Virus record (IMG/VR): IMGVR_UViG_3300031707_000026 | Location: 1 to 53,650 of that record | DNA: 53,650 nucleotides | Origin: a virus | Taxonomy: Duplodnaviria > Caudoviricetes | Strand: one strand, 5' to 3' | Part shown: piece after piece, positions 12,727-37,486 of the stretch | How the letters are laid out: the number at the start of each line of letters is the position of its first letter | How positions within the stretch are numbered: position 1 is the stretch's first letter | Program-made: the position numbers and the translations under genes | The notes under the pieces: generated by a model | Told to the model about the DNA's origin: nothing | The model's input: only the letters and a program-made list of their open reading frames with translations | The model's database searches: none

Positions 12727-12799
12727 TGCGGGGTGGAGCAGCGGTTAGCTCGCGTGGCTCATAACCACGAGGTCGCGGGTTCAAATCCCGCCCCCGCTA
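12727..12799 (+). tRNA. tRNA-Met(CAT), initiator (fMet)-like
   Basis: TGCGGGG/CCCCGCT acceptor with 1:72 mismatch, TGGAGCAGC D-arm, CTCATAA loop, GGTTCAAATCC T-arm; no encoded CCA. Confidence 0.92.
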
Positions 12800-12821
12800 C
12801 TTATTTGTAGAGAGGAGTGTT

Positions 12822-14769: not shown

Positions 14770-15143
14770 TTGAGACACGAATCTGTAAAGAATTTACATT
14801 CGAAGCTTCTCATCAACTCCCCAATCACAAAGGGAAGTGCAAGAACCTTCATGGGCACTCGTATCGAGTTCAAGTCGAACTCTCAGGAGAGATCAACTTA
14901 GTAGAGGGAGCCTCTGATGAAGGGATGATCACAGACTTCGGAGATCTCTCAGAGATCGTCAAGACTGAAGTTCTCGATCGATTTGATCATCATCACTTGA
15001 ATGATCTGATCGTAGCTGTCCCGACAGTAGAGATTCTAGCAATGATCATCTTCAAGATCATCCGAAGAAAGACATCGAAAGTCTCCCGAGTTCGTATCTA
15101 TGAGACAGCTACATCGTATGCAGAGGTAGTTGATGTCGAATAG
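14766..15143 (+). CDS. queD: 6-carboxytetrahydropterin synthase QueD
   Basis: FEASHQL, CKNLHGHSY, DFGDL, DHHHLND, PTVE, ETATS. Confidence 0.93.
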   Translation: MIETRICKEFTFEASHQLPNHKGKCKNLHGHSYRVQVELSGEINLVEGASDEGMITDFGDLSEIVKTEVLDRFDHHHLNDLIVAVPTVEILAMIIFKIIRRKTSKVSRVRIYETATSYAEVVDVE

Positions 15144-15816
15144 CTTTCCTGTCGTCGAGATCTTTGGGCCTACTCTTCAAGGAGAAGGCCCTCAGATCGG
15201 CCTCAGATCAACATTTGTTCGATTTGCTGGCTGCGATCTTCGCTGTACATGGTGTGATTCGATGCATGCTGTCTCGTCTAATCCAAGAACGAAGATGCTC
15301 TCAATTGAAGAGATTCTATCGCGTATTCGATCTCTTCTTGAAGTCGAGTGGGTCGTCCTGACAGGAGGAAACCCTCTATTATATGACTTGAGTGATCTCG
15401 TGTCTCGTCTTCAATCGGGAGGGTATCGAGTAGCTGTTGAAACTCAAGGAACACTCTGGAAGCCTTGGATAACTTGGGTCGACTGTCTCGTTGTCTCTCC
15501 TAAACCCAAGTGGTCTCAGCCTGAAGCATATCAACAACGAACATGCGTAGATCATCGATTCGAACATCTTCGAAAAAGCGAGTTCTACAAGATCGTTGTC
15601 TTCGAAGAAAGAGATCTCGATTTTGCTGAACAGTTCTCTGAAGTCGGAGATCATCTCTATCTATCATGTGGGACTCTCCCAACAGACTCTTCAAGTGATG
15701 TTCTTCAGAGACTTCGAGATCTGACGAAGAGATCTTTTGATCGTCCTGCTCTTCGAAGTGCCTATTTTCTCCCACAGCTTCATGTTCTTCTGTGGGGACA
15801 CAAGCGAGGTGTGTAG
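15133..15816 (+). CDS. queE: 7-carboxy-7-deazaguanine synthase QueE (radical SAM)
   Basis: EIFGPTLQGEG, FVRFAGCDLRCTWCDS, LTGGNP, ETQG, SPKP, PQLH. Confidence 0.93.
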   Translation: MSNSFPVVEIFGPTLQGEGPQIGLRSTFVRFAGCDLRCTWCDSMHAVSSNPRTKMLSIEEILSRIRSLLEVEWVVLTGGNPLLYDLSDLVSRLQSGGYRVAVETQGTLWKPWITWVDCLVVSPKPKWSQPEAYQQRTCVDHRFEHLRKSEFYKIVVFEERDLDFAEQFSEVGDHLYLSCGTLPTDSSSDVLQRLRDLTKRSFDRPALRSAYFLPQLHVLLWGHKRGV

Positions 15817-15817
15817 A

Positions 15818-16375
15818 ATGTCTGATCGACTTGAGACTCTCATTGAGAGCCTTCTGATAGAATCTGGAGATGACTATACTCGAGAAGGGCTCAAAGATAC
15901 TCCTCGAAGAGTCGCTGCTGCCTATCGAGAGATGTGGGCAGGGTATGGTCAAGATCCTGCAGCAATCCTTCGAACTTTCGATTCTGAAGGACATCACGAC
16001 TTGATCTCAGTCACTCAGATTCCTTTCTATTCGACATGCGAGCATCATTTGTTGCCGTTCTTCGGAGTAGCTCATATTGGGTACATCCCTGAAGACAAGA
16101 TCATCGGGATCTCAAAAATTGCTCGAGTCGTCGAAATCTTTGCTAGACGACTTCAAGTCCAAGAGAGACTGACAGCGCAAGTTGCTGATACGTTGTTCGA
16201 AGAGCCTCTTGGGCCTCAAGGAGTCATTGTTGTGCTTCAAGCTGAACATCTGTGCATGGCAATGCGAGGCATTCTGAAGCCTGGGACGATTACAACAACA
16301 TCAGCAATTCGAGGAATCTTTGTCGATGATGTCGATCTTCGAGCTGAATTCTTATCTTTGATTCAAAAGAGGTGA
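15818..16375 (+). CDS. folE: GTP cyclohydrolase I
   Basis: REGLKDTPRRVA, STCEHHLLPFFG, GISKIAR, RRLQVQERLT, HLCMAMRG. Confidence 0.95.
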   Translation: MSDRLETLIESLLIESGDDYTREGLKDTPRRVAAAYREMWAGYGQDPAAILRTFDSEGHHDLISVTQIPFYSTCEHHLLPFFGVAHIGYIPEDKIIGISKIARVVEIFARRLQVQERLTAQVADTLFEEPLGPQGVIVVLQAEHLCMAMRGILKPGTITTTSAIRGIFVDDVDLRAEFLSLIQKR

Positions 16376-17040
16376 CTATGAGTGCTGTCTTACTACTTTC
16401 TGGAGGGCTCGACTCAGGAACTCTCTTGACGAAACTCTATCACGAAAGCATCGATGTCATCCCTCTATCTATCGACTATGGCCAGAGGCACAGAGGTGCT
16501 GAGGGAGAGGCTGCTCAACATCTATCAGACTTCTTCAGAGTACCCCTGAAAACTTTATCTCTCGAAGATGTCTTCTCTTTTATTCCCATGGGAGCTCTCT
16601 TGAGTACCACACCCATGCCTCATCTGTCGTATCAAGAACTGGCAGAAGAGGTTGGCCCTTCCCCGACGTATGTTCCCTTCCGGAATGCAGTCTTGATTTC
16701 AGCTGCAGTCTCGATAGCTCTTCAAATCGAAGCAGACTCAGTCTACATTGCTACTCATGCTGAAGATGCTCGTAATTGGGCCTACCCTGATTGTACCCCT
16801 GAGTTTAACGGCTCCATGGCGGCAGCAGTCTATGTTGGGACGTACTCGAAGGCCCGGCTGTTCACTCCCTTCCAGTGGATGATGAAGCGAGACATCGTTA
16901 AGCTCGGCCACGAGCTGAATGCTCCGTTCCACTTAATGTGGTCTTGCTACGAAGGAGATCTGACTCCTTGTAGAAAATGTCCCACATGCATAGAAAGAGC
17001 AGAAGCCTTTCGAGCAAATGGTCTTAAAGACCCTATGTAA
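16372..17040 (+). CDS. queC: 7-cyano-7-deazaguanine synthase QueC
   Basis: LSGGLDS, YGQRH, TYVPFRN, YPDC, WSCY...CRKCPTC; no glutamine amidotransferase fusion. Confidence 0.95.
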   Translation: MTMSAVLLLSGGLDSGTLLTKLYHESIDVIPLSIDYGQRHRGAEGEAAQHLSDFFRVPLKTLSLEDVFSFIPMGALLSTTPMPHLSYQELAEEVGPSPTYVPFRNAVLISAAVSIALQIEADSVYIATHAEDARNWAYPDCTPEFNGSMAAAVYVGTYSKARLFTPFQWMMKRDIVKLGHELNAPFHLMWSCYEGDLTPCRKCPTCIERAEAFRANGLKDPM

Positions 17041-25485: not shown

Positions 25486-25700
25486 TGCGTTTTGCGGGGG
25501 GTACAGTTATACCCTACTCTGCAAACGAATGCGTCCTAGGCTGTCCTACACGTGAAGATCCTATAGAAATAGCGATGCAGTGCAAGAACCAACGATCGCG
25601 CTGGTAGGAGACAGGGAAGATGACAACCCTGCTCGCACTGCATCGCAGACGAGCGGACGAGAATCGAACTCGTCTACACAACCATGTCGCTCGTGACGTT

Positions 25701-26372
25701 CTAAAGCCCGCTCTCGCATCCCTGAATGTCGTTCAGGATGTCTTCCCAAGCAGACTCGATTCGAGTCTGAGCTTCGTTATCGAGCTCTTCTTGCCAAGCT
25801 TCGTGGCGCTTCTCAAGTTCTGTCCCGATCTCTTCTTTGTGCTCGTCAGCGTCGAACTCAGCATCCTCCTCGAGAGTCTGCTGTTCGAGCTCGTGAATAA
25901 TCTCGTCTCGAGCAGCATTCTCGTCCCACTCTTCGTACTCGTTCTTGACATCTTCTCGAATCTGATCTTCGTCGACTTCAAGATCAAACCCTTCGAGATC
26001 GCCAGCCCACGACTCTAGCCCATCAATACGCTCCTGAAGGAGTTGGCCTGCGTTCGACGATTCCTGGAGCTGCTCTGGCATGTTCGAGAGACTGTCTTCA
26101 CAAGTCGAACGAAGATCGTTGATTCGATCGACGAAGCTGGGGACTTCATCAGCGAGGGACTTGTCTGCAGAGAGAGCTCCAAGACCATCTTCGATCTCGT
26201 AGAGCTCTTGAAGGAATGAACTCTGCGTCAGCTGACCGCGAGTTGGAGGTGTCAGCTGCATGTGAAGCACACTATCGAAGCGAAATTGCCACCAGTAGTA
26301 CGAATCCCCTTTCTTAATTCCGTACTTCGGGTAATCTCTACGTGCATGTTTGACGTGCGTTACTTGAGGCAT
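25701..26372 (-). CDS. Phage hypothetical protein (basic N-terminus, acidic coiled coil)
   Basis: GGAG RBS; last gene of the - strand array. Confidence 0.7.
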   Translation of the reverse strand: MPQVTHVKHARRDYPKYGIKKGDSYYWWQFRFDSVLHMQLTPPTRGQLTQSSFLQELYEIEDGLGALSADKSLADEVPSFVDRINDLRSTCEDSLSNMPEQLQESSNAGQLLQERIDGLESWAGDLEGFDLEVDEDQIREDVKNEYEEWDENAARDEIIHELEQQTLEEDAEFDADEHKEEIGTELEKRHEAWQEELDNEAQTRIESAWEDILNDIQGCESGL

Positions 26373-26550
26373 ATTCTTCTCCCTTCATCTTCTCGACTTC
26401 ACGAATGACTTCAGTCAAGGTAACATCTGGTGTCTTGTCGAACAAGGCGACCAAGCGTACCCAATCTTCCCACCTGAAGACAACCAGGGCGTCATCAGTG
26501 ACGATACTTTTCTTGCTCTTAAGCTCTTCTTGAACAATGTGATGTGTCAT
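26338..26550 (-). CDS. Hypothetical protein
   Basis: AAAAGGAG RBS directly after a class II element. Confidence 0.6.
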   Translation of the reverse strand: MTHHIVQEELKSKKSIVTDDALVVFRWEDWVRLVALFDKTPDVTLTEVIREVEKMKGEEYASSNARQTCT

Positions 26551-26568
26551 ATGTTTTCTCCTTTTCTC

Positions 26569-26658
26569 TTGATCGTGCCGAATTACACGATCTCTTCAAG
26601 CTGACTAGACCTCGCTAGTCAGCTTGAAGAGATCAGGGAGATCGACTCCCCGATCAAC
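26569..26658 (-). ncRNA. Class II intergenic four-arm structured element
   Basis: Three hairpins sharing GATC at their bases; last loop TAATTCGG; precedes the SD. Confidence 0.55.
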
Positions 26659-26763
26659 TCACGATATGATGATAATGAGAGTGCACCCAGCGATGAGAAG
26701 CACGATGACAAGAAGGAGGGTCACTGAAATGATCACGAACACTCGAAGCATTCGAGCGATCAT
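26659..26763 (-). CDS. Small membrane peptide (34 aa)
   Basis: ATGA overlap with the upstream gene; one long hydrophobic stretch. Confidence 0.45.
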   Translation of the reverse strand: MIARMLRVFVIISVTLLLVIVLLIAGCTLIIIIS

Positions 26764-27104
26764 ACTTTGATCCTTGACGTAAGAATCAACCCATCTCCAA
26801 GCTCATGAATTCGCTTGTGTTGTCGATGAGCATCCTCGATCGACGACCACACACTAAGACGACGACCCTCAGCCTTCTCAGCAAGAAAGTCTCTCACAGC
26901 GACGACATGAGAACACCCACAAGGAGTGCCAGGCTCACGATACTTGCCCCACTCGCACGTACAGGTCACGTTCGCTGCTTCTGTGAACTTCACTGTGTAC
27001 AGCTCGCCGGAAGCTCCACTGACGACAAGATACTCGTCTTCACTTAGAGGGGTGACTTCATGAGAGCGACTTTTTACTTGCATCTCTTTCGGAAATCTGT
27101 TCAT
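26760..27104 (-). CDS. SWIM zinc-finger protein
   Basis: YTV...CTC...CSHVVAV. Confidence 0.7.
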   Translation of the reverse strand: MNRFPKEMQVKSRSHEVTPLSEDEYLVVSGASGELYTVKFTEAANVTCTCEWGKYREPGTPCGCSHVVAVRDFLAEKAEGRRLSVWSSIEDAHRQHKRIHELGDGLILTSRIKV

Positions 27105-27125
27105 AAGCTCCTCCCGAAGCTTTGC

Positions 27126-27512
27126 TTAGCCAGCACGATAGTTGCAGAGAACGATCCCTGCGTCACCTCCTGCAAGCAACTCGATACACGTCGACTTGCG
27201 GTGCTTGAGCCAAACATCTCCACCTTCGTCACCATGCGCAAACGCCGCAATCTTGCGAGCTTGTAGTTCAGTCGCCGCTCGAACTACGACCCCGTTGACG
27301 ACATCGTAGGCATCGCTCTCCTCCTTTGAGTGTAGAAGCCACAGCTTTATCGCATCTTCTGTCTTGATTATCTTGACGCTGCCGTTAAGATACGCAACGC
27401 GATCTGCAGCTTTCTCTCGATCAGTGTGATCACTGTCAGGATGCCAAACCCCCTTCGGGTCGTAGAAGCCGACTGTCCAGAGACCTGGCTCTGATTGAAT
27501 GTAGACATACAT
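27126..27512 (-). CDS. Hypothetical protein
   Basis: AAGGAG RBS before ATG 27512 (MYVYIQSEPGLWTVGFY). Confidence 0.6.
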   Translation of the reverse strand: MYVYIQSEPGLWTVGFYDPKGVWHPDSDHTDREKAADRVAYLNGSVKIIKTEDAIKLWLLHSKEESDAYDVVNGVVVRAATELQARKIAAFAHGDEGGDVWLKHRKSTCIELLAGGDAGIVLCNYRAG

Positions 27513-27525
27513 GGGATTCTCCTTC

Positions 27526-27777
27526 CTAGACGTTATAGTGAGGGATCGTATCAGCGATCGTCGAGAACAAGAGACGAGCAGCTTCGAAGGGAACTGTGTC
27601 TCCCTCAGCAGCAACACGATCATCACTCCAATCAGTCAGACCGCGATACGCAGTCCAAAAGTGATCTGAGTGAATGACTGCGATGACCTTGTAGCCGAAG
27701 AGATCTCTTGACTTGATTTCATTCCCTTGAACAACATAGGGATTCAGCGTCCCGTTCTCATTTGGATTTCGAGACAT
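27526..27777 (-). CDS. Hypothetical protein
   Basis: AGGTG RBS; packed in the - strand array. Confidence 0.55.
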   Translation of the reverse strand: MSRNPNENGTLNPYVVQGNEIKSRDLFGYKVIAVIHSDHFWTAYRGLTDWSDDRVAAEGDTVPFEAARLLFSTIADTIPHYNV

Positions 27778-28150
27778 GATTCACCTGCTCTCTAGCTGCT
27801 TTGACAAAAGCATTGAGCTCGCAATCAAACCGCTTGAGGAACTGAGCACGAGTCTTCGTTGAAGCATTCGTCTTGAGCCCAACCCAGCGCTTTATCTCGG
27901 TTGGTGTGAAGAAGACTGGTTCTCGATCAACGATCTTGCCCTTGTCGTCGAAGTCTCGGCCAATGCGAAAAGCACTACTCGTGATTTCGATGAGATGAAT
28001 TCGGGCATACACTTCAGGCCAGTTGCTCTTGGTGATCTCAGGGATCCCAGACGAGATTGATCCGAAGACCAGACATTCGCGTGCTGCACGATCATTATCG
28101 TCGATCGGTTTGGGAGGCACACACTTTGTTGAATCGACCTGTAGAGACAT
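27758..28150 (-). CDS. Hypothetical protein
   Basis: AAAGGAG RBS after a class I element. Confidence 0.6.
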   Translation of the reverse strand: MSLQVDSTKCVPPKPIDDNDRAARECLVFGSISSGIPEITKSNWPEVYARIHLIEITSSAFRIGRDFDDKGKIVDREPVFFTPTEIKRWVGLKTNASTKTRAQFLKRFDCELNAFVKAAREQVNHVSKSK

Positions 28151-28168
28151 CTTGTTTCTCCTTTCTCT

Positions 28169-28227
28169 GAGGCTGAACCGCCTCGTGCTACTCTCGAGTC
28201 GTATCGAGAGTAGCCAATGAAGGTTCA
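28169..28227 (-). ncRNA. Class I intergenic structured element
   Basis: TGAACC...hairpin...GAGGC-GGTTCA-GCCTC, then SD. Confidence 0.6.
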
Positions 28228-28455
28228 GCTTTTCTGAGCGTCGTGGATGATCACATTGATGGCGTCGTGGATGATCACATTGATGTGACCTGTGAGAGCA
28301 TAGAACACATTACCTTCAGCTTCGATCAGTCGAAGTGAAGCATCTCGATCTTGAGACTCAGGGATCTCTGCGACGAGCTGTTCGAGGAGCTCGTGAGCTC
28401 GAAGAAGAAGCTGTTGAGCTCGTATAACTTTGTCAAGCTGTTGCGATGAGATCAT
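28225..28455 (-). CDS. Hypothetical protein with a 24-bp in-frame tandem duplication
   Basis: INVIIHDA occurs twice. Confidence 0.55.
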   Translation of the reverse strand: MISSQQLDKVIRAQQLLLRAHELLEQLVAEIPESQDRDASLRLIEAEGNVFYALTGHINVIIHDAINVIIHDAQKS

Positions 28456-28456
28456 A

Positions 28457-28678
28457 CTACACCGAAGCCTTTCGCCCGAGATAGAGGTTCATCTTGAGCT
28501 GGCCAGGAACAGCTGTGAAGCCGCCAGTCGAAGCGATGCCAATCATCTTGCCTGAAGAGCTCGCTCCGATCTCTTTCGTCGTATCGACGACGATGATCAG
28601 CAAGTCGTCCTGTTTGACGATCTTTAAGTTCTCACCAACAGCCTTCGCGTCCTTGAGATTTACAGAGATTGTGTCCAT
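28457..28678 (-). CDS. Hypothetical small protein
   Basis: AAAAGGAG RBS; SSSGKMIGIASTGG motif. Confidence 0.6.
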   Translation of the reverse strand: MDTISVNLKDAKAVGENLKIVKQDDLLIIVVDTTKEIGASSSGKMIGIASTGGFTAVPGQLKMNLYLGRKASV

Positions 28679-28693
28679 TGCTTTTCTCCTTTT

Positions 28694-28996
28694 CTAGCTC
28701 TCGATCACATCGAGAAATCGAGAAACGAACTCACTTGCACTGAGCGTCTGAATCTTCTCTCGTTGTCGTCGCTCGATCTGTTGAGTCTCTCCCAAACAGA
28801 GACGCTCGCTCAGACGGCGATAGATAACACTCAGTGCTTTCAAGTCAGCATGGTACTCTTCTGACTGATTGGGCCCATGACGAATGACTACCTTGAACCA
28901 ACAGCGAGACCCGATCTTGCGAAATAGGTAGTCGTCTGGGCCTATGCCCCCAGACTTGAGGGTTAGATTCCCTCCTTCAAAAAACGTCGCTGTCAT
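28694..28996 (-). CDS. Hypothetical protein
   Basis: AGGAG RBS before ATG 28996, after a class I element. Confidence 0.55.
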   Translation of the reverse strand: MTATFFEGGNLTLKSGGIGPDDYLFRKIGSRCWFKVVIRHGPNQSEEYHADLKALSVIYRRLSERLCLGETQQIERRQREKIQTLSASEFVSRFLDVIES

Positions 28997-29013
28997 ACTT
29001 TTCTCTCCTATTT

Positions 29014-29073
29014 GGGACTGAACCGTCCCTGACCGAGTCTTAACATTTGTTAAGACTCGGATATGAAGGTTCA
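29014..29073 (-). ncRNA. Class I intergenic structured element
   Basis: TGAACC...hairpin...GGGAC-GGTTCA-GTCCC. Confidence 0.6.
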
Positions 29074-29913
29074 ATCTGTTAGCTGCTTGTTTCGACCACC
29101 CATACTCTTCTGTCCAATGTGTAGAGTGGCACCGACTTCAGAGCCCTTAGCGTAGCCGAGAGTGTTGAAATCATTACCCCCAGAGCTCACAGTGTTAAAG
29201 CCTTTCGAGAACAGCTTCCACTTAGCTGCGAGATTCTCGTCAAAGACAACAAGCGCTAACGAGACGTTCTTGGTGCGAGAATCTTCCTGCTCTTGCAGGG
29301 ACTTGCTGACAGCAGACAAGCATCCCTGCAACCAAGACTGGCGGAAGACGTTTGGGTGTTCACCCATCAACCCTGAGATGCGATATGCGCTGTTGACGCT
29401 GCGAATGCCTCGATTGAGCTCGTTGTACTCAGTGACGAGCTCTTTGCAATACACAGATGTCGCTTCTAACGCCATCAGCGTGAGCTTGTTCAACCACTCG
29501 ACGAACAGCTGAGAAGCAAGCTCTGCACTCGATTCCTTTCCGTAGAAGCCAATGGTCTTGCCCAACGAGCGTTCATAGCCGTACACAGTCTTCATTGGCT
29601 TGTCATCGTCTGTATACTTCCCTGTCGAGAAGTGCTTCGTGTGCGTGATGTGAGCGATGACGCGAGCAAGCTGCCAGTGCCAAGAGCGAATAACACCAAA
29701 CATGGCGTCTGCGTTCTTGGACTTGAATGCTTCGTCGATGACGACGTTGCCTGCTTCGTGCACTTCGGCCATCGAAATCGAATACTTATCCATCAGACGC
29801 TGCATCGCTGCTGATGCGTTCGCGATCTCGCCTTCGAAAGCACCGCTGTCTGGGTTCACGATCTCAGACAGCTTGCGAACTTGCTCGATGATTTTCTTAC
29901 GACTTTTTGTCAT
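29071..29913 (-). CDS. DUF2786-domain protein
   Basis: KIIEQVRKL...EGEIANA...QRLMDKYSIS N-terminal motif; ATG 29913 with AGGAG RBS. Confidence 0.75.
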   Translation of the reverse strand: MTKSRKKIIEQVRKLSEIVNPDSGAFEGEIANASAAMQRLMDKYSISMAEVHEAGNVVIDEAFKSKNADAMFGVIRSWHWQLARVIAHITHTKHFSTGKYTDDDKPMKTVYGYERSLGKTIGFYGKESSAELASQLFVEWLNKLTLMALEATSVYCKELVTEYNELNRGIRSVNSAYRISGLMGEHPNVFRQSWLQGCLSAVSKSLQEQEDSRTKNVSLALVVFDENLAAKWKLFSKGFNTVSSGGNDFNTLGYAKGSEVGATLHIGQKSMGGRNKQLTD

Positions 29914-29928
29914 CTTGAGTCTCCTTTT

Positions 29929-29987
29929 GGGATTGAACGATCCCAGTGTGCTCATCTCTTTTGAGATGAGCACTAGCGAGCGTTCAA
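29929..29987 (-). ncRNA. Class I intergenic structured element
   Basis: TTGAACGCTCG...hairpin...GGGAT-CGTTCA-ATCCC. Confidence 0.6.
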
Positions 29988-30302
29988 CTACTTGCTAAAC
30001 TCTTTCTTGAACAGTTGTTGGACTTTCTTCTCAACAAGGTCGAGCTGGATCGTCTCGAGATCGGCGACATTCTCGATGCAGCTTTCGCCGAGGATGCGAA
30101 GAGCTTCACCCACATCTGGGAATTCTTCTTCAGAGCTCTGCCGCATCTCATAACCGATCGAGATGAGTTGGGTTTTGTACTCGGAGACGAACTCATCAGC
30201 AAGGAACTCGTCTGAAGGGTAGCCACAAGCAGCACAAGCCTTCCGCTCGAGAGCGTTAAGCTCGGCTGTGCTCATAGCAGGGACTGAAACTCTCGTAGTC
30301 AT
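29988..30302 (-). CDS. Hypothetical protein
   Basis: AGGAGGT RBS; CAAC motif. Confidence 0.55.
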   Translation of the reverse strand: MTTRVSVPAMSTAELNALERKACAACGYPSDEFLADEFVSEYKTQLISIGYEMRQSSEEEFPDVGEALRILGESCIENVADLETIQLDLVEKKVQQLFKKEFSK

Positions 30303-30562
30303 TCTACACCTCCTAGAACAGAATTGCGATCAAGCGATACTGCTAGAATTGCTGGCGAGCCTTCTGTACAAGAAAGCATGAACCCCTTCTCGAACCTGTT
30401 GCCCATGCTTAGCTCCTCGAGGCGATGACGACTTGCGAGCGTGACATGGTTATATGATCGAGTAGCAGTGTCCGTCGATGTGCCAGGAATGTATTCTGTA
30501 ACGAGTGCACTACCACCGTCCCAGAAGGTCAAGCGCTTGTCGTTCTTTACTTTTGAAGCCAT
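30299..30562 (-). CDS. Hypothetical protein
   Basis: AAAAGGAG RBS before ATG 30562. Confidence 0.55.
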   Translation of the reverse strand: MASKVKNDKRLTFWDGGSALVTEYIPGTSTDTATRSYNHVTLASRHRLEELSMGNRFEKGFMLSCTEGSPAILAVSLDRNSVLGGVE

Positions 30563-30578
30563 TTTAACATCTCCTTTT

Positions 30579-30640
30579 GGGATTGAACGATCCCTTCCTA
30601 GCTTCCAGCGAATGCTGAAAGCTAGGCCACGAGCGTTCAA
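30579..30640 (-). ncRNA. Class I intergenic structured element
   Basis: TTGAACGCTCG...hairpin...GGGAT-CGTTCA-ATCCC. Confidence 0.6.
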
Positions 30641-30780
30641 TCTTCTCCTACCATCTTCACTATGCCCTTACTCGACTTTGTTCTCGAGCGTGGGGGAGCT
30701 TACAAGAGAAGGGGTTTTCGCTCAAAGACAAACTCGCTCTGAGCAACTTGGTAAGACTGACGATGCGCTGCAGACAAAGG

Positions 30781-31008
30781 CTACTCGACATTAACCCACT
30801 TCATGCAAGTTTGCAAAAGGTGATTGTAGTCGCCGCTTGTCGCTTCGCCCATGAAGGCATCGCAGTCTTCCTTCGAGACGTCGTTGCTCTTCAAGGCCTT
30901 GGAAACCTTGCCCAAAACGAAGAAGGCGTTGCCGTCTTCGCCAGAAAGTTGGACGGTGATCTCGGGGAACTTGACAGCACCTGCGGTCGTACTTTGATTT
31001 GTCGTCAT
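30781..31008 (-). CDS. Small phage hypothetical protein (GEDGNAF motif)
   Basis: AGGAG RBS; VQLSGEDGNAFFVLG...SGDYNHLL. Confidence 0.65.
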   Translation of the reverse strand: MTTNQSTTAGAVKFPEITVQLSGEDGNAFFVLGKVSKALKSNDVSKEDCDAFMGEATSGDYNHLLQTCMKWVNVE

Positions 31009-31021
31009 CTTGACATCTCCT

Positions 31022-31110
31022 AGATTGCATTGAATGATGCAACCTTAACAAATCATCTAACAAGGAGTTAGATGATTTGTTAAGGTTGAGCAACTGAGAA
31101 GTTGCTCAAC
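31022..31110 (-). ncRNA. Class II intergenic four-arm structured element
   Basis: Three hairpins sharing GTTG/CAAC; last loop CATTCA. Confidence 0.55.
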
Positions 31111-31120
31111 TTTGATCTTT

Positions 31121-31372
31121 CTAGAAGTCTAGCCAGAGAGGGAGCTTCTCGAACTCTCGACCCCACCACTCGATCATTGAGTCGCCTTGATCATACGCCT
31201 TCATTACTAGGCATCGAAGGTTGTTCGAGTGAAAGAGATCCATTGTTATCGTGCCGCGCTCGATTGCCAAGAATGTGTTGCTGAGTTCGATGTAGGCATC
31301 AGTTTGTGCAGCATTGTATAAGCGGGCAGCTTCCTGCTTGTCCCATTGTTGCCAAACGGGTAGCATAGTCAT
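31121..31372 (-). CDS. Hypothetical protein
   Basis: AAAGGAG RBS. Confidence 0.5.
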   Translation of the reverse strand: MTMLPVWQQWDKQEAARLYNAAQTDAYIELSNTFLAIERGTITMDLFHSNNLRCLVMKAYDQGDSMIEWWGREFEKLPLWLDF

Positions 31373-31385
31373 TTCATTTCTCCTT

Positions 31386-31580
31386 TCACAAATAGCCAAG
31401 CTGTCGAAGCGAGCGACTAGCCTTCATGAATTGACTCCAGCGCTTCACAGCCCACATCTCAGCAAGTTCGCGGTCAGTGAAGAAACGTTTCCCGACGAAC
31501 ACTTGCGAGTTCCCCTGCACGGCGCTTAGACGAATCGTGACGCCGTTTGGTGCATACTTTCGGTCGACTTTTACGTGCAT
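31386..31580 (-). CDS. Hypothetical protein
   Basis: AAAGGAG RBS before ATG 31580. Confidence 0.5.
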   Translation of the reverse strand: MHVKVDRKYAPNGVTIRLSAVQGNSQVFVGKRFFTDRELAEMWAVKRWSQFMKASRSLRQLGYL

Positions 31581-31594
31581 CTTGTTTCTCCTTT

Positions 31595-31655
31595 GGGATT
31601 GAACGATCCCTGACTCAACCTTAACATTTGTTAAGGTTGAGATGCGAGCGTTCAA
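31595..31655 (-). ncRNA. Class I intergenic structured element
   Basis: TTGAACGCTCG...CTCAACCTTAAC/GTTAAGGTTGAG hairpin...GGGAT-CGTTCA-ATCCC. Confidence 0.6.
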
Positions 31656-31661
31656 TTAGCT

Positions 31662-32087
31662 TTAGAGCATCAACTCATCGCGCAGGAACGGCGGCAAGTG
31701 AGAATTGTGGTAATAGTAGCTCGTCGCGATGAACGGCGCTACTTCTTCATACCACTTCTTGGTGCTGCGATATGCTTGCCGAATCTTGCCGTCGACAACT
31801 ACTGCATGCTCAATCGTCTCATCGCGTCCCCACTTGCTGATGCGAAAGATTGTGCCGACCGAGCCTTCCTGCTTGCCGTCTGCAGAGCTCATCAACGCTT
31901 CGAGATTGGTGCGAGCTTCACCAAGCGTCACAAAGTCTTCAGAGCGAGCTGTTTTGTGAAGCTTGTCGTCGTCGCCGATGACGCGCAGCGTTGCAAAGTA
32001 GCGAGTTGTCGTAGTGCCATGCTTGATCATGCGGGCTCGCCTTGCAGAAAACTTGCTCATCATCCTTTCGTCGAACATTGTAGCCAT
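31662..32087 (-). CDS. Hypothetical protein
   Basis: AAAAAGGAG RBS after a class II element. Confidence 0.6.
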   Translation of the reverse strand: MATMFDERMMSKFSARRARMIKHGTTTTRYFATLRVIGDDDKLHKTARSEDFVTLGEARTNLEALMSSADGKQEGSVGTIFRISKWGRDETIEHAVVVDGKIRQAYRSTKKWYEEVAPFIATSYYYHNSHLPPFLRDELML

Positions 32088-32112
32088 CTTTGCTCTCCTT
32101 TTTGCAAAAAAT

Positions 32113-32207
32113 AGATTGTAGCCGAATTGCTACAACCTTAACAAGTCGTCCAAACTAGTTGAACGACTTGTTAAGGTTGAGGAGCTCCTCCTCGAGCTCT
32201 TCAACCT
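32113..32207 (-). ncRNA. Class II intergenic four-arm structured element
   Basis: Three hairpins sharing GTTG/CAAC; last hairpin GTTGTAGC-AATTCG-GCTACAATC. Confidence 0.55.
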
Positions 32208-32213
32208 AAAACC

Positions 32214-32435
32214 TTACGCTGAGTGCCAGCCGAAGCGGTAGTAGAAGCGTCGCATCTTTGCTTCGCCTTCAACCTGCACTGTCGCGCGAACATAGACGCC
32301 GCTTGGGCCTAAGCCGCACGTCACAATTTTCGCTGACTTGCCAAGCTTGGCTGCAAGCTTAGCAACCTTGACTTCAAGCTCCCTGCGAGTCATTACAACA
32401 TATTTCGCGTTTTCCTTCTCGTCTTCTGTAGCCAT
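32214..32435 (-). CDS. Small basic protein, probable paralog of the 33541-33822 product
   Basis: KLGK...VQVEGEAKMRRFYYRFGW aligns by eye with KLGK...VKVVGEVGLRRWFWYGGRW. Confidence 0.6.
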   Translation of the reverse strand: MATEDEKENAKYVVMTRRELEVKVAKLAAKLGKSAKIVTCGLGPSGVYVRATVQVEGEAKMRRFYYRFGWHSA

Positions 32436-32458
32436 CTTTGCTCTCCTTTTGCAAAAAT

Positions 32459-32554
32459 AGATTGTAGCCGAATTGCTACAACCTTAACAAATCACTCAAA
32501 GGCAAACTTTGCTTTGAGAGATTTGTTAAGGTTGAGCAACTCTCGTTGCTCAAC
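32459..32554 (-). ncRNA. Class II intergenic four-arm structured element
   Basis: Same architecture; its 3' ~60 nt are nearly identical to the 32113 copy. Confidence 0.55.
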
Positions 32555-32894
32555 TTTTTCATCGGCGAGGTCGTCGCAAGCTTCAAATAGCTCGCTCATT
32601 CATTCGCGAGTCGTCGCAAGCTAAATATCTTTGCTCGCTCGTCACAAATTGTATCCGGTGCTATCTACGCGCATCAAAAGATGTCGCCCTACTTTCGCTT
32701 GGGTTTCGCGATTTTGGATTCTGTCGCTTCGCATCCCCACCTCCTAGCCTACTATTACCTTTTTGAGCCTTGTTAAGGTTAGTTTTCACTGCGCTTCTGC
32801 TTGCGTACCTGCCTTCGCAGCTACTTTCCTTAATGCTCGCGGATTGGAGGTGATGTGGTGAAAAGTTTGGTTGTTAAAGTGCTATCTTATATTT

Positions 32895-32937
32895 ATTATA
32901 GAGCCTAAAGATTAAGGGGCGATTAAGAGATAATAAG
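32895..32937 (-). promoter_or_regulatory. Promoter for the - strand early array (phased CTTAATC boxes plus TATAAT)
   Basis: Minus strand reads CTTATTATCT-CTTAATCGCCC-CTTAATCTTTAGGCTC-TATAAT. Confidence 0.65.
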
Positions 32938-32977
32938 AGTTTCGCGGACTGTTAGGAGGAGTAGTTGTGTAAAGTTT

Positions 32978-33410
32978 TGTTAAGGTTGTTAAGGTGGGGA
33001 GCGAGCGCGCGTGATTTGTTAAGATACTGCTCGCACGCTTTCAAGCCTGCGCGCAAAGCGACGCGCTCGTTAGGGTTGTTAAGATTGTTAAGGTTGTTAA
33101 GATTGTTAAGGTTGTTAAGACTCGCGCGCACACTCGCTCGCACTCACTCGCTCTCTCGCACGCACTCGCGCGGTCGCTCGCTCAAAGTTGAGCTTGCGCC
33201 GAGCGGAGTTGTGAAGCGCGAGTTGTTAAGGTTGTTAAGGTTGCGCGTATCTTAACAAATGTTAAGGTTGTTAAGGTTGCGCGTATCTTAACAACCTTAA
33301 CGGCTGCGCGTACCTTAACAACCTTAACAACTGCGCGGTGTTAAGGTTGCGAAGAGCTGCGATTTGTTAAGGTTGTTAAGGTTGCGCGTACCTTAACAAC
33401 CTTAACAAAT
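32978..33410. repeat. Array of 9-bp TTGTTAAGG / CCTTAACAA repeats interleaved with GCGC(G) tracts
   Basis: Dozens of direct and inverted copies, e.g. 33068-33120 and 33222-33410. Confidence 0.9.
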
Positions 33411-33423
33411 CGCACCAAATCCT

Positions 33424-33488
33424 CTAATCTTCTTCTTAGCGCCTTTTAATCTCCTCTTAATACTCTCTTAATCTTGGTAGCCTATAAT
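33424..33488 (+). promoter_or_regulatory. Promoter with five 11-bp-phased boxes plus TATAAT
   Basis: Boxes at 33424, 33435, 33446, 33457, 33468; TATAAT at 33483. Confidence 0.7.
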
Positions 33489-33540
33489 ATAGGTATAAAG
33501 GAAGCCGCCGGTTTCCTAAAAGAAGAAAAGGAGAAATGAA

Positions 33541-33822
33541 ATGAAAGAAAGAATTGAAAGGGAAATAGAAAGAGTAGGAAATGAGTATGGGGTGAGAGTT
33601 GGAGAGAGGTTGGAAGAGAGATTGTTAAGGTTGGAAAAGTTAGGAAAGGAGATTGAAAGTGTTAAGGCTTATGTTTTTGAAGGAAAGGAGAAGGAGATAG
33701 GTTATGCAGGAAGAAGGGGATATGGTAGGGGTTTTTGGAAAAGAGGAGTTGTTAAGGTTGTAGGAGAAGTAGGATTAAGGAGATGGTTTTGGTATGGAGG
33801 AAGGTGGTGTAATAGTAGATAA
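33541..33822 (+). CDS. Stand-alone 93-aa protein encoded almost without cytosine
   Basis: Own promoter, AAAAGGAG RBS and terminator; only C33668 and C33707, both in Ala codons; similar to the 32214-32435 product. Confidence 0.75.
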   Translation: MKERIEREIERVGNEYGVRVGERLEERLLRLEKLGKEIESVKAYVFEGKEKEIGYAGRRGYGRGFWKRGVVKVVGEVGLRRWFWYGGRWCNSR

Positions 33823-33835
33823 ATAGATAGGTAGG

Positions 33836-33872
33836 AAAAGGAACCTTAACAAATGTTAAGGTTCCTTTTTTT
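33836..33872 (+). terminator. Rho-independent terminator built from the GTTAAGG motif
   Basis: AAAAGGAACCTTAAC-AAAT-GTTAAGGTTCCTTTTTTT. Confidence 0.8.
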
Positions 33873-33917
33873 AAGATTGTTAAGATGCGTTAAGGTTGTT
33901 AAGGTTGCGCGGCTCGT

Positions 33918-33999
33918 GTTAAGGTTGTTAAGCTCGTTAAGGTTGTTAAGCTCGTTAAGGTTGTTAAGCTCGTTAAGGTTGTTAAGCTCGTTAAGGTTG
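33918..33999. repeat. 18-bp tandem repeat GTTAAGGTTGTTAAGCTC, four copies plus a partial
   Basis: Perfect units start at 33918, 33936, 33954 and 33972. Confidence 0.95.
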
Positions 34000-34234
34000 G
34001 CAACCCCCGGCGCGTGCGCGATGCGCGAGAGCCCGGGAGCTGTGTGCGACATCAGCGACAATCGCATCTCACATCTCTCACTACGCATCTACAACGCCCA
34101 GATCAAGTCACATCTCGCATCTCCCTACACTATGCAACCCCAAAAGGCCGCCAAACTTTAGGAAACAGCACGCTTAAAAAGCACGCTTGCAACGCCCCCT
34201 ACAACGCCAAGGTCTAGAGAACAGCACGTCTCGA

Positions 34235-34440
34235 AAGCATCGTTTGACATGTCAAACTAACTTCCCTGAATAACTTTACTAACCTATCCCGAGCAAAGTT
34301 AGCAAAGTTAGTTTGCCGCATATATACATATGCGGCAAACTAACTATGCCCAACTATGCTTTGTGGGGGAAAAACTGTCAAAATAACCGCAGTTCTTTTA
34401 AGTTATTTTGACAAAAACATGCGTGTCAAACGATGCTTTT
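34235..34440. repeat. Nested inverted repeats with a central palindrome (34301-34350)
   Basis: Outer pair AAAGCATCGTTTGACA / TGTCAAACGATGCTTT; AGTTAGTTTGCCGCATAT-ATAC-ATATGCGGCAAACTAACT; TGTCAAAATAAC / GTTATTTTGACA. Confidence 0.8.
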
Positions 34441-34519
34441 TGCAGAGATTTCAGCAAGACGACAAACTAACCACACATATTCTTCGTCGTATTCTTAGTT
34501 TCTACACGGCGGACACCCC

Positions 34520-34578
34520 TTGATTTCCTCCCGAGAACATTATATACTATTGTTAAGCTATTGTTAAGGTTGTTAAGA
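34520..34578 (+). promoter_or_regulatory. Sigma70-type promoter of the packaging/structural operon, with GTTAAG boxes over the start site
   Basis: TTGATT-17 nt-TATACT (34520-34548) followed by TGTTAAGCTATTGTTAAGGTTGTTAAG. Confidence 0.65.
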
Positions 34579-34580
34579 CT

Positions 34581-34829
34581 ATGGCTCTTAAATGGATTCA
34601 GCCCAGATTATTTTATCTCTTCTCTGACGGTCCCATTGTTCGCATTGGGACGGAGTACACAGAAGAAGCGAAGCGAAGACCCCGTCTAGCTCGTCTTGGG
34701 ACGAAGCACTCTGAAGAGACGAAGCGAAAGATTGGCTCGTACCACCTTGGGACGAAACACTCTCCCGAGACGATTCAAAAGATGCGCGATACCTACCAGA
34801 GGAACCATGGCCTTCGGCAGCAAAGCTAA
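34581..34829 (+). CDS. NUMOD3-repeat-only protein (homing endonuclease remnant or DNA-binding regulator)
   Basis: GTEYTEEAK, GTKHSEETKRKI and GTKHSPETIQKM repeats; no nuclease domain. Confidence 0.6.
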   Translation: MALKWIQPRLFYLFSDGPIVRIGTEYTEEAKRRPRLARLGTKHSEETKRKIGSYHLGTKHSPETIQKMRDTYQRNHGLRQQS

Positions 34830-35358
34830 CAATATTCCCAATAGTCCAGAACACGTCTCAGAAGCTCCTGCTGCTGGCAAGGCTCGACGTGCCTTGACGA
34901 CGATGCTTCAAGACGCTGGGGATCAAATCATTGCTGTCAAGCAGGGAGAGGGAGCTACAGCCGAAGAGATTCTTCGATCGAAGTCTCAGATCCTCTCAGA
35001 TCTTGTATGGGAGATGCTGCTTTACAGAACAGTTCACTTCCCCGACGGTACGACCCTCAAAATCAACTCAATCGCAGAATGGTTCGAAGCAGTCAAGTTC
35101 TTGTATCGTCAAGTGGATGGTGCGCCGCCTGCTGAAGTTGGCTTGACTTTGAATCCGAACTTCGACCCGAAGGCTTGGGCAGAAGAGCGTCGGCAGCGTC
35201 TCGAGTCTACAGTCGCAGAACTTCCTGACGAGTCTGTGCTAGCAGTCCCTACTCCGCAATCTCAAGAAACTTCGTCGACAGATGACCTTGAAGCTGCTCT
35301 CGAAAACGCGGAGCCAGTTACAGGTACTGTATTTGATATGAATCGAGATGTAGCATGA
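34807..35358 (+). CDS. Probable terminase small subunit
   Basis: Position upstream of TerL; AVKFLYRQVDG helix motif; GAGGA RBS before ATG 34807. Confidence 0.55.
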   Translation: MAFGSKANNIPNSPEHVSEAPAAGKARRALTTMLQDAGDQIIAVKQGEGATAEEILRSKSQILSDLVWEMLLYRTVHFPDGTTLKINSIAEWFEAVKFLYRQVDGAPPAEVGLTLNPNFDPKAWAEERRQRLESTVAELPDESVLAVPTPQSQETSSTDDLEAALENAEPVTGTVFDMNRDVA

Positions 35359-36035
35359 TTGCTGGCGTCTACGAGATTAGAAATGTTTTGAACGGACATA
35401 GATATGTGGGGAGTTCGAGTGACGTGCGCTGGCGATTTCTATGCCATCAAGATGATTTGCAAAAGGGCCTACATCATAGTCGTTATCTACAGAGAGCTTG
35501 GAACAAGTATAGCGCTGAGAATTTCGTGTTTCGTGTTCTCCTCAGATGTGATCCCGATATGCTCATCTTCTTCGAGCAGAGACTCATGAACGTCATCAAG
35601 CCTGAGTATAACATTTCACCGACCGCTGGGAGTCCTCTAGGATGCAAGCATTCTGAAGAAACGAAGTTGAGATTGAGTATAATCAATCGAGGAATCAAGC
35701 GTACTGAAGACCAGAATCGAGCGAGGAGTCTTGCTCGTCAAGGGTGCAGACACTCTGAAGAGACGATCTCGAAGATGAAGATCAGTCATCGACGGGAGAA
35801 TCTATCAAAAGAGACACTTCAAAAGATGAGTCTAGCCAGTCGAGGACGAAAGTGGTCTAAAGAAACGAGAACGAAGCATCAAGGGATTAGACCTTCAGAT
35901 GAGACTAGACAGAAGATGCGAATAGCTAAATTGGGACGAAAGCAGTCTAGGGAAACAATTCAGAAGAGATGCAATACTCGAGCTTACAATCATCGACGCC
36001 TTGCTCTTCTTGCTTCGCTGGGGGGTTGGGTATGA
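35355..36035 (+). CDS. Free-standing GIY-YIG/NUMOD3 homing endonuclease
   Basis: AGVYEIRN...YVGSS, LQRAWNKY, PEYNI, multiple HSEETK repeats. Confidence 0.9.
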   Translation: MIAGVYEIRNVLNGHRYVGSSSDVRWRFLCHQDDLQKGLHHSRYLQRAWNKYSAENFVFRVLLRCDPDMLIFFEQRLMNVIKPEYNISPTAGSPLGCKHSEETKLRLSIINRGIKRTEDQNRARSLARQGCRHSEETISKMKISHRRENLSKETLQKMSLASRGRKWSKETRTKHQGIRPSDETRQKMRIAKLGRKQSRETIQKRCNTRAYNHRRLALLASLGGWV

Positions 36036-37486
36036 ATACCCCCCTATCGTTGAAAGCACAATGGGCCCTGGAGTTTGTGGATTTACCAGCGGCAGCTCAG
36101 ATCGATGGTGCTCGTTGGGAAGCGTTTCAAATGCGAGAGCTCGGGAATACTAGTCGCTATGGCCTGACTGTGAAAGCACGTCAAGTAGGGTTTTCCTTTA
36201 CTAGTGCCCTAGATGCGTTTTGTGATAGTCGATTGAACCCAGGCTGGCCATATGTGTTTGTATCGATAAACTTGGAGGAAGCTACCGAAAAAATCCGGTA
36301 TTTGAGAAACATCATGGCTGCCACAGACTTGCCAGTAAGACCTCAAAAGTTTATTACAGATTCTCAAACTGAATTAGAATTTAGTGACCACAGCCGATTT
36401 TTGAGCCACCCCTGCAAAGTGGTTCGAGGGAAGGCGGGAGCTCGTGTGTATTTGGATGAACTCTCTCACTACCCCGAAGGATTAGATCGCGAAATTTATA
36501 CTGCCGCGCTACCTGCTACTACGAAGGGAGGAGGATATCTTCGTATTGGGAGCTCTCCCCTCGGTGCACGAGGGTTGTTTTGGGAAATCGCCTCCGAAGC
36601 TATTAGAAGCTGGCCTGGGTTTACTAGGACTTGGGTTCCTTGGTGGTCAACTTTTGCGTTGTGTAATGATGTGTTGTTAGCATCAGCTCTAGCTCCTCAC
36701 ATGGCTCCCGAGGATCGAGTCGAGAAGTTTGGGACAGAGATTTTGAAAGAAATCTTCTCGAATATGTTTTTGGACGATTTTGAACAGGAGTACTCGTGCC
36801 AATGGATTGATGAAGCCTCTTCTTGGCTCCCTTGGGATATCATCATTCGCAATCAACGGCCTTCGCTCTTGACCTTCAGATACAAGAACGTATCAGAAGT
36901 ATTCGCGGGTATCGACGACATCAAGGAAGCGATTCAATCAAGTAGAATCGAGGGAGTTCTCGCTGGTGGGCTTGATGTGGGTCGCAAACATGATTTGACT
37001 GAGTTCGTCGCGGTCGGCAAGTCGACTTCTGGCGAGTCTCCCCTGCGTATCTCAGTATCATTGGACAGAGTAGAGTTCGATCAGCAGGAAGCGTGCTTAA
37101 CTAAGTTGATCGAAGAGCTGCCCTTTACTTCAGTACTAGTAGACAAGAATGGAATAGGCTCTCAGCTCTCAGAAGCTCTCGAACGCACTTGGAAAACAAC
37201 AGGCGTCGATTTTACAAACCCAAACAAAGAATTGTGGGCTGTGAATGCTAGAATTGCTATGCAGAGGAACCTAACGCCGATCCCCGAAGATCGAGAGCTC
37301 GCCTATCAGATTCATTCAGTTCGAAAGCAGGTGACGAGTGCTAAGAATAACGTCTTTGACACTGAACGAAATGCGAAGCACCACGCTGACAAGTTTTGGG
37401 CCTGGGCCCTAGCGTTGTATGCAGCTAATTCAGAAGGCGCTGAAGCTGAGTATTCAGAATCAGTTGCTGTAGATTATCGAGGTTGA
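36032..37486 (+). CDS. terL: Terminase large subunit
   Basis: KARQVGFS Walker A, VYLDE Walker B, SSP, GLDVGRKHD, VDKNGIG, HADKFWA nuclease motifs. Confidence 0.9.
   Translation: MNTPLSLKAQWALEFVDLPAAAQIDGARWEAFQMRELGNTSRYGLTVKARQVGFSFTSALDAFCDSRLNPGWPYVFVSINLEEATEKIRYLRNIMAATDLPVRPQKFITDSQTELEFSDHSRFLSHPCKVVRGKAGARVYLDELSHYPEGLDREIYTAALPATTKGGGYLRIGSSPLGARGLFWEIASEAIRSWPGFTRTWVPWWSTFALCNDVLLASALAPHMAPEDRVEKFGTEILKEIFSNMFLDDFEQEYSCQWIDEASSWLPWDIIIRNQRPSLLTFRYKNVSEVFAGIDDIKEAIQSSRIEGVLAGGLDVGRKHDLTEFVAVGKSTSGESPLRISVSLDRVEFDQQEACLTKLIEELPFTSVLVDKNGIGSQLSEALERTWKTTGVDFTNPNKELWAVNARIAMQRNLTPIPEDRELAYQIHSVRKQVTSAKNNVFDTERNAKHHADKFWAWALALYAANSEGAEAEYSESVAVDYRG

Follow-up and report, generated by a model that had tools for sequence, protein, structure and literature searches.

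We describe a family of small structured elements in a viral sequence of 53,650 bases (the full IMG/VR virus record IMGVR_UViG_3300031707_000026, Caudoviricetes, hereafter the window), in which five copies of roughly 60 bases each lie on the minus strand between co-oriented small genes (28157-31655). Comparison with copies from related phages indicates with high confidence that the elements form an RNA-level structure with three selected helices (P1, P2 and P3), acting in cis in a polycistronic early transcript, and the way in which P1 and P3 share nucleotides favors an element with two mutually exclusive states. As to function, we tentatively propose, at a probability of roughly 0.42 and on the strength of their anatomy, that these elements are RNase III-type intercistronic processing sites, with P2 as a 3’ cap for the upstream message and a refolded P3 as a 5’ cap for the downstream one.

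All copies share one order of parts: a 5’ segment, 4-6 nucleotides (nt), a long hairpin (P2), 2-3 nt, a short hairpin (P3), 3-7 nt, a Shine-Dalgarno (SD) sequence and an ATG. In the window the 5’ segment reads TTGAACGCTCG or [TC]TGAACCTTCAT, such that TTGAACG, TTGAACC or CTGAACC is found 42-46 nt upstream of each P3 stem, P2 is a hairpin of 11-13 base pairs (bp), P3 is a 5-bp hairpin with a hexaloop, and each P3 is followed by an AAAGGAG-type SD and then the ATG. The third helix, P1, pairs the 5’ segment with the P3 loop. Scanning the window by script for perfect 5-bp stems with an SGTTCA hexaloop yielded five on the minus strand and none on the plus strand, recovering every copy that an initial annotation of the sequence had placed there (A to E, in 5’ to 3’ order). 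A covariance model built from 27 copies and scored over the whole window with filters off likewise gave five sense matches of 50.7-91.1 bits; the opposite strand at those places scored 14-35 bits, and the best minus-strand match outside the five copies, a P2-like palindrome at 33841-33864, reached 18.8 bits. All five copies folded far more stably than their dinucleotide shuffles (z-scores from -6.25 to -8.89), with 0/200 shuffles as good for any copy. The bare hexamer GGTTCA is not enriched in the window (19 observed versus 23 expected), and the signal therefore lies in the composite element and not in the word.

When 30 distinct copies from the window and about four related lineages were aligned, P1, P2 and P3 were all supported by covariation. 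P1 was 98.5% paired, with 7/9 pairs changed on both sides, and P2 was 96.1% paired, with 11/12 pairs changed on both sides; these measures were reached by 0/500 shuffles, and sliding the partners by 1-3 columns lowered pairing to 21-51%. P3 was 100% paired, with 5/5 pairs changed on both sides, in the 27-copy set, which is biased for P3 since a scanner requiring 5/5 P3 pairs, TGAAC and NNTTCA supplied 27 of the 30 copies. The other three were found by the covariance model alone, which itself contains P3. One of these has a 4-bp P3 (GGGT/ACCC) and a 5’ segment altered such that the extended P1 stays, and the other two, missed by the motif scanner, combine a different P1 allele (TAGAGC/GCUCUA in place of TTGAAC/GTTCAA, the two alleles seen in all) with a GGGGU/ACCCC P3 stem. 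Pairs 1:62 and 7:56 covary independently, since all four combinations of their pair types occur. P2 is formed by at least nine unrelated sequences with its geometry kept, showing a tetraloop in 23/30 copies and a length of 12 bp in 15/30 (by a rough per-sequence fold, in which values of at least 14 bp include flanking pairs), and every P3 stem seen has its G-rich strand 5’ and its C/U-rich strand 3’. Between the window and the related locus L011, the neighboring DUF7168 gene is 49% identical at third codon positions, and the elements are 64-75% identical at corresponding positions. The initial annotation had noted, from the window alone, that the P3 stem covaries (GGGAT/ATCCC, GGGAC/GTCCC, GAGGC/GCCTC) and that the loop covaries with the 5’ segment (TGAACG with CGTTCA in three copies, TGAACC with GGTTCA in two); both patterns hold, and the covariation extends much further in the larger alignment.

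P1 and P3 compete for the same bases. P1 reaches into the P3 stem, with pairs 1:62, 9:54 and 10:53 all using P3 stem nucleotides: column 62, with which the P3 3’ strand starts, is the partner of column 1 (UA 15, CG 10, UG 1, other 2), and the P3 5’ strand supplies columns 54 and 53 as partners for columns 9 and 10. Within P3 these columns have partners of their own, 55:62 (UA 16, CG 9, UG 2) and 54:63 (AU 19, GC 8) in the 27-copy set, such that column 1 and column 55 each covary with column 62; in one copy, a joint change affected columns 10, 53 and 64. Because they share nucleotides, the full P1 and P3 cannot coexist, and yet both are kept. The initial annotation had left the choice between a pseudoknot and a two-state switch, and these data favor the latter: an H-type pseudoknot has coexisting helices that share no covarying nucleotides, which is not the pattern found here. 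A reduced static pseudoknot that uses the six loop pairs only is possible.

Structure prediction agrees on which state lies lower. The RNAalifold consensus is the extended P1 together with P2, and P1 plus P2 is the minimum free energy (MFE) structure in 29/30 isolated elements and, folded separately, in 5/5 window copies. With flanking sequence included, the P3 state lies 2.0-5.6 kcal/mol above the P1 state in four window copies, and in copy C both states have the same energy, -36.3; P3 by itself contributes -4.9 to -8.1 kcal/mol. For the ground state, a hairpin of about 22 bp is predicted, in which P1 (7 bp, a mismatch and 2 bp) sits below P2 (11-13 bp plus a tetraloop). The internal loop between them is asymmetric and conserved: its 5’ side has 4-6 nt, often xATC, and its 3’ side about 5 nt (UCA plus GG).

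The five window copies, all on the minus strand, illustrate this plan. Copy A (31595..31655) begins with the P1 5’ strand at 31655-31646 (TTGAACGCTC), 9 nt after the upstream TAA stop, and continues with P2 at 31641-31614 (12 bp plus a tetraloop, its arms carrying CCTTAACA), P3 at 31610-31595 (GGGAT CGTTCA ATCCC), GGAG at 31591-31588 and the ATG at 31580; it is the best match to the model (91.1 bits; MFE -28.4; z -8.89). Copy B (30579..30640; 71.4 bits; MFE -35.7; z -6.66) has its P1 5’ strand at 30640-30631, a P2 of unrelated sequence at 30626-30597 (13 bp plus a tetraloop), the same P3 as copy A at 30594-30579 (GGGAT CGTTCA ATCCC) and an ATG at 30562. That P3 occurs again in copy C (29929..29987; 58.9 bits; z -7.36), at 29944-29929 (GGGAT CGTTCA ATCCC), behind a P1 5’ strand at 29987-29978 that a TAG stop abuts and a P2 at 29973-29948 that is again of unrelated sequence (11 bp plus a tetraloop); the ATG at 29913 is that of a DUF7168/DUF2786 protein. 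In copy D (29014..29074; 87.3 bits; z -6.97), the TGA within the P1 5’ strand (29074-29065, TTGAACCTTC) is the stop codon of the upstream gene, P2 at 29060-29033 has 12 bp plus a tetraloop and arms carrying CTTAACA, and P3 at 29029-29014 (GGGAC GGTTCA GTCCC) precedes an ATG at 28996. Copy E (28169..28228; 50.7 bits; z -6.25) also has the upstream gene’s TGA stop within its P1 5’ strand (28228-28219, CTGAACCTTC), followed by a P2 of unrelated sequence at 28214-28187 (11 bp plus a 6-nt loop), P3 at 28184-28169 (GAGGC GGTTCA GCCTC) and an ATG at 28150. Compared with the copy before the homologous gene in the related locus L016, copy E has an identical P3 and a different P2.

The position of the upstream stop codon is a further constant feature. 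We analyzed 29 copies, omitting L265:1612-1684, which shares its position with an L011 copy. In 27 of them the upstream open frame spans 40 codons or more; the other two run off their locus. Counted from the first P1 base, the stop is at -9 to +1 in 26/27 copies: 11 are a TGA inside P1, as in copies D and E, one is the TAG of the other allele (P1 positions 1-3), nine abut P1 at -3, three lie at -5, one at -4 and one at -9. These positions bear out the earlier description of stops inside the pairing segment in D and E and abutting it in C, and they make plausible the earlier suggestion that the element is ribosome-triggered, although two T7 intergenic hairpins that we folded have the same stop placement. 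The exception is copy B, with a stop offset of -143, which is the sole copy without an adjacent upstream gene stop. A five-codon open reading frame (ORF) at 30654-30637 on the minus strand ends with the TGA in P1 of copy B, and may be a leader peptide or a chance occurrence.

The relatives were gathered by several searches. An exact search of viral contigs for the P3 16-mer returned 20 loci, three of them real (L011, L016 and L020) and the other 17 chance matches in unrelated genes, and a scan for the P2 palindrome returned 16 loci, the real ones again being these three. Two loose gapped patterns were set aside, as the single matches among those listed on viral contigs were nearly all chance; a stricter filter over 263 loci kept only L011, L016 and L020 as real, and matches in nine other loci, which came without P2 and SD, were judged to be chance. 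Scanning metagenomes for P3 plus an SD gave 30 loci, of which L265, L273, L276, L281, L287 and L291 hold 2-8 copies each, and L268 and L274, with one match each, also hold real copies. The same pattern matched seven times singly on genome contigs, in unrelated metagenome-assembled genomes, and these matches were treated as probable chance. A protein search with a DUF7168 alignment found two already known viral contigs only, and nothing in genomes. Judged by the neighboring DUF7168 protein, the copies represent about four lineages: the window, the L011 group (68-71% identity), L287 (63-64%) and L268/L274 (55-56%). In three relatives searched over their whole records, all copies lie on one strand within a single block of 6-7 kb, with 8-11 sense-strand matches in G001 and G002, and several of the window genes that stand between elements have no homologue in the relatives.

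How might such an element act? In the processing model that we favor, a host RNase III or another double-strand-specific endonuclease would cut in or beside the P1/P2 internal loop, separating the cistrons. The upstream mRNA would retain P2 as a 3’-terminal hairpin that blocks 3’ exonucleases, and the downstream fragment, having lost the pairing partner, would refold its first ~16 nt into P3, which as a 5’-terminal hairpin 3-7 nt before the SD could shield the mRNA from 5’-end-dependent decay. P1 and P3 would both be selected because they act successively on the same nucleotides. Every step beyond the fold itself is one that we infer. The anatomy suits this proposal in several respects: P1 (7 bp, mismatch, 2 bp) and P2 (11-13 bp) together span about two helical turns, giving the size and shape of an RNase III substrate, and every copy stands between two ORFs of its own orientation, after a stop and before an SD. 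We infer a single transcript because no promoter- or terminator-like sites lie inside the elements. As described in the portion of PMC1540722 consulted, E. coli RNase III substrates typically comprise two helical turns, short helices that stack coaxially being enough, and internal loops restrict the enzyme to one bond and leave protective 3’ hairpins; for T7 R1.1 it gives the upper stem-loop product as 28 long. A length of 28 nt is also that of a P2 with 12 bp and a tetraloop. The earlier suggestion of a processing or stabilizing site that splits the early transcript is thereby ranked first among the readings, by anatomy only.

Several observations weigh against this proposal. A plain RNase III site has no need of P3, and no T7 site is known to us in which an alternative hairpin covaries. 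Of the RNase III families searched, PF14622 was not found in the window and PF00636 was not found in the relatives G001-G003; with no RNase III gene in the window or in these three related fragments, a host enzyme must be assumed. No host is assignable, since the region 27000-33000 had no similarity match in cultured phage DNA, the DUF7168 protein had no match in phages by tblastn, and the window terminase shows at most 33% identity to that of any cultured phage. The presence of CTTAACA in P2 arms hints at an added role at the DNA level. The covariation itself carries an ascertainment bias from the scanner that supplied 27/30 copies and from a model that contains P3, and, the relatives all coming from about four lineages, gene conversion between copies may inflate its counts. 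Finally, the placement of the stop codons fits a role for the ribosome at least as well.

That role could take the form of a ribosome-actuated switch for translational coupling or gating, a rather unlikely reading but the main alternative, in which a terminating ribosome would melt P1 and P3 would snap in. Going by the ribosome footprint, a terminating ribosome would cover the P1 5’ strand and not P2. The consequence, to be held with similar reserve, would be altered access to the downstream SD or the sparing of translated mRNA from cleavage, and, in an equally doubtful last step, the P3 loop would serve after the ribosome departs as a toehold for the 5’ segment, by which P1 is restored. The elements would then be self-resetting, protein-free RNA toggles at cistron junctions, each terminating ribosome flipping P1+P2 to P2+P3, which we hold to be improbable as a complete account, as we do the corollary that the state of the toggle reports upstream translation and gates nuclease cleavage or initiation at the next gene. 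Much of the anatomy agrees with such a switch: the end of the upstream ORF overlaps the P1 strand, as in ermC- and atpHA-like systems, with the stop at -9 to +1 in 26/27 copies; copy B, lacking an adjacent gene, has the five-codon ORF that ends at its P1 TGA; the mutually exclusive P1 and P3 both covary; all P3 stems have the same strand polarity; and for most copies the UCC released from P3 in the P1 state is predicted to pair with the SD’s GGA. With the 5’ segment masked, the SD is predicted to be more open in copies A, C and D, but in partition-function calculations copy B shows almost no effect and copy E the opposite one, the sequestration amounts to just 2-3 bp (UCC:GGA), and no state buries the SD or AUG in a stable helix. 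Moreover, T7 intergenic hairpins also have stops in or beside the lower stem, such that the placement may reflect tight packing only, and the mini-ORF of copy B could be a chance occurrence. The ribosome switch and the processing model could also be combined.

Readings in which a protein or the DNA itself is the target are less likely than either processing or a ribosome switch. P3, with or without the 5’ segment, might be a protein site, for a phage translational repressor of early genes (like the targets of T4 RegA and gp43 or the MS2 coat operator) or for an antitermination factor as at lambda nut, which we consider quite improbable. A small hairpin that is G-C-rich, has a conserved loop and stands 3-7 nt before the SD in many early genes would suit such a site, and a single-stranded 5’ box that is conserved and precedes a 5-bp hairpin is reminiscent of the boxA/boxB order. 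However, the loop changes together with the 5’ segment (CGUUCA, GGUUCA, GCUCU), and from a loop that covaries in this way RNA-RNA pairing is expected rather than recognition by one protein; lambda nut has a fixed boxB loop and one or two copies per operon, whereas here the loop varies and there are five copies in the window and 8-11 in G001/G002, the five to ten copies per operon being unlike nut or put. No RNA-binding protein was recognized among about 40 ORFs scanned with Pfam and/or PHROGs, a subset of the window ORFs. The readings at the DNA level, which we rate lowest of all, are promoter/terminator shuffling cassettes similar to the PeSLs of T4-like phages, operators for a CTTAACA-binding protein, or N4-type hairpin promoters. 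CTTAACA occurs 53 times in the window versus 5.35 expected, with 47/53 copies in 29039-34577, including the P2 arms of A and D; all P2 of the L011 group carry a CTTAACA palindrome; and the window genes without a homologue in the relatives look cassette-like. Against this, none of the five elements contains a sigma-70-like promoter or a terminator-like site (15 promoter-like and 7 terminator-like sites were called in 25500-34800), P2 has been swapped for unrelated sequence of the same geometry in 3/5 window copies and in several relatives, and the orientation is strictly sense. G.U pairs are also tolerated, with 14 G.U versus 0 A.C in per-sequence P2 folds, 12 G.U versus 3 A.C cells in P1, and 21 versus 10 alignment-wide, some of the latter 10 coming from misaligned P2 rows. 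A T7-type RNA polymerase gene was not found, a result that is uninformative given that the search control matched in no genome. Sense orientation, G.U tolerance, the lack of promoter or terminator sites and the free sequence of P2 point to sense-strand RNA, and in some copies P2 may also be a protein-binding DNA palindrome.

Two further candidates were dropped: P3 as the T-arm of a tRNA, by reasoning only, as its loop has 6 nt and the pairing register is unfit, and a sigma-70 promoter with TTGAAC as -35 or TTCAAT as -10, which has no A at position 2 of the -10 and was not called.

The elements sit in a minus-strand block of small genes that runs from about 32435 down to 25701, with strong AAAGGAG-type SDs and hardly any family matches; only the DUF7168/DUF2786 protein (29913-29071) and two PHROGs of unknown function were recognized in it. 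The window, whose completeness is estimated at 59%, also encodes a family A DNA polymerase, a helicase, a primase, an exonuclease, a large terminase and a major head protein, and a search for the Sigma70_r4 family found no match. A Vut_1 transporter-like protein, GTP cyclohydrolase I and QueC are encoded at 14131-17040 on the plus strand, and these genes of 7-deazaguanine synthesis may serve phage DNA modification. On the same strand, an ORF resembling GIY-YIG/NUMOD3 homing endonucleases (35355-36035) has its 3’ end inside the start of the large terminase ORF (35969-37486), and a tRNA-Met (CAT) at 12727-12800 is the sole Rfam match of the window at gathering thresholds.

Next to the small-gene block, the non-coding region 32100-34600 is packed on both strands with direct and inverted (C)CTTAACA(A) repeats, holds most of the CTTAACA copies, and looks like an iteron or operator array, perhaps an origin or a regulatory region. 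The best sigma-70-like promoter match of the region (34567-34539, minus strand; TTAACA, 17 nt, TATAAT, 11/12 positions) has a -35 hexamer that is part of a CTTAACA repeat. Other classes of intergenic element stand before SDs on the minus strand at 32556-32440, 32200-32100, 31120-31010 and 26660-26550, and also in L287. They consist of two or three tandem hairpins: after a first hairpin comes a very long one, with arms CTTAACAAATC...GATTTGTTAAG at the first three of these places, and then a short one with the loop AATTCGG or CATTCA. A promoter-like site (TTGTTA-18-TACAAT) and a terminator-like hairpin occur in two of these elements. Among the relatives, the minus-strand copies at L287:5732-5891 and L011:6461-6620 have no SD after them; about 130 nt of non-coding sequence follow instead, with conserved parts shared between the L287 and L011 phages (e.g., GACGGCACGGACG), and this stretch may be another RNA.

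The initial annotation had not recognized the element as a known family, and this holds both for Rfam 15 and for the papers searched in full text. Rfam 15 gave no family match for the elements over the whole window at gathering thresholds, and in E-value mode over 28100-32600 it gave two chance-level microRNA matches only, at a different element; in a full-text search the P3 16-mer was not found and the 5’-segment 11-mer occurred in unrelated papers only. Intercistronic processing hairpins of phages are already known; the element family and its covarying alternative hairpin appear to be undescribed. Mutually exclusive helices backed by covariation are rare outside riboswitches and attenuators, and here, among uncultivated phages of one group, a two-state element recurs 5-10 times per operon. 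Should the elements be processing sites and refold into end-caps, they would provide a compact natural route from a polycistronic mRNA to independently stable messages, a cut-and-cap principle that synthetic biology has rebuilt by hand. If instead they are flipped by ribosomes, they would be translation sensors of a new kind, recurring along a phage operon and forming a class of cis-regulatory RNA so far undescribed. The family is small (~60 nt) and absent from Rfam, and compensatory mutants of it would be clear-cut.

Several known systems invite comparison. The PeSLs of T4-like phages, which the part of PMC4122927 consulted describes as an early promoter plus a terminator stem-loop, are likewise short intergenic motifs repeated among small, variable early genes and potential recombination points. 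Unlike them, the elements described here have no promoter-like or terminator-like site. ermC-type attenuation and the atpHA coupling switch use competing helices 1:2 and 2:3, with a ribosome covering segment 1 at the end of the upstream ORF, and the arrangement is the same here; the differences are that here the SD is not hidden by a stable helix and that a full gene rather than a leader peptide forms the upstream ORF, copy B being a possible exception. The T7 early RNase III signals, named R0.3, R0.5, R1, R1.1 and R1.3, bear on the processing model. The portion of PMC3867540 consulted counts five such signals in an early precursor of roughly 7000 nt. The T7 record annotates no RNase III features, and the intergenic intervals that we folded were picked with the help of the gene table. 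Their folds consist of a lower stem and, above an internal loop, an upper stem of 9-10 bp capped by a loop of 4-5 nt. At genes 0.4 and 0.7 the stop codons fall within or next to the lower stem, and the following SD is just downstream. Both sets thus comprise several conserved intercistronic hairpins of 50-70 nt and about two helical turns in an early polycistronic transcript, with the same succession of lower stem, internal loop and upper stem and the same placement of stop and SD. They differ in that there is no sequence similarity, that here a covarying second hairpin, P3, competes with the lower stem, and that cleavage is here a proposal. Sites for Bs-RNase III in the early mRNA of the Bacillus phage SP82 are reportedly repeated, conserved hairpins cut by the host enzyme (Panganiban and Whiteley 1983, cited in PMC4838370), and SP82 sequences are also said to act as 5’ stabilizers (Hue et al. 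1995, cited in PMC3997798); repeated early processing hairpins are what we propose here too. Known stabilizers of mRNA include 5’-terminal stem-loops, as in ompA, papA and aprE. Those are single elements of primary transcripts, whereas here the 5’ hairpin would exist only after refolding; as in other end-protecting hairpins, a cut in the internal loop would create a 5’ end only a few nt from P3 and a 3’ end at P2.

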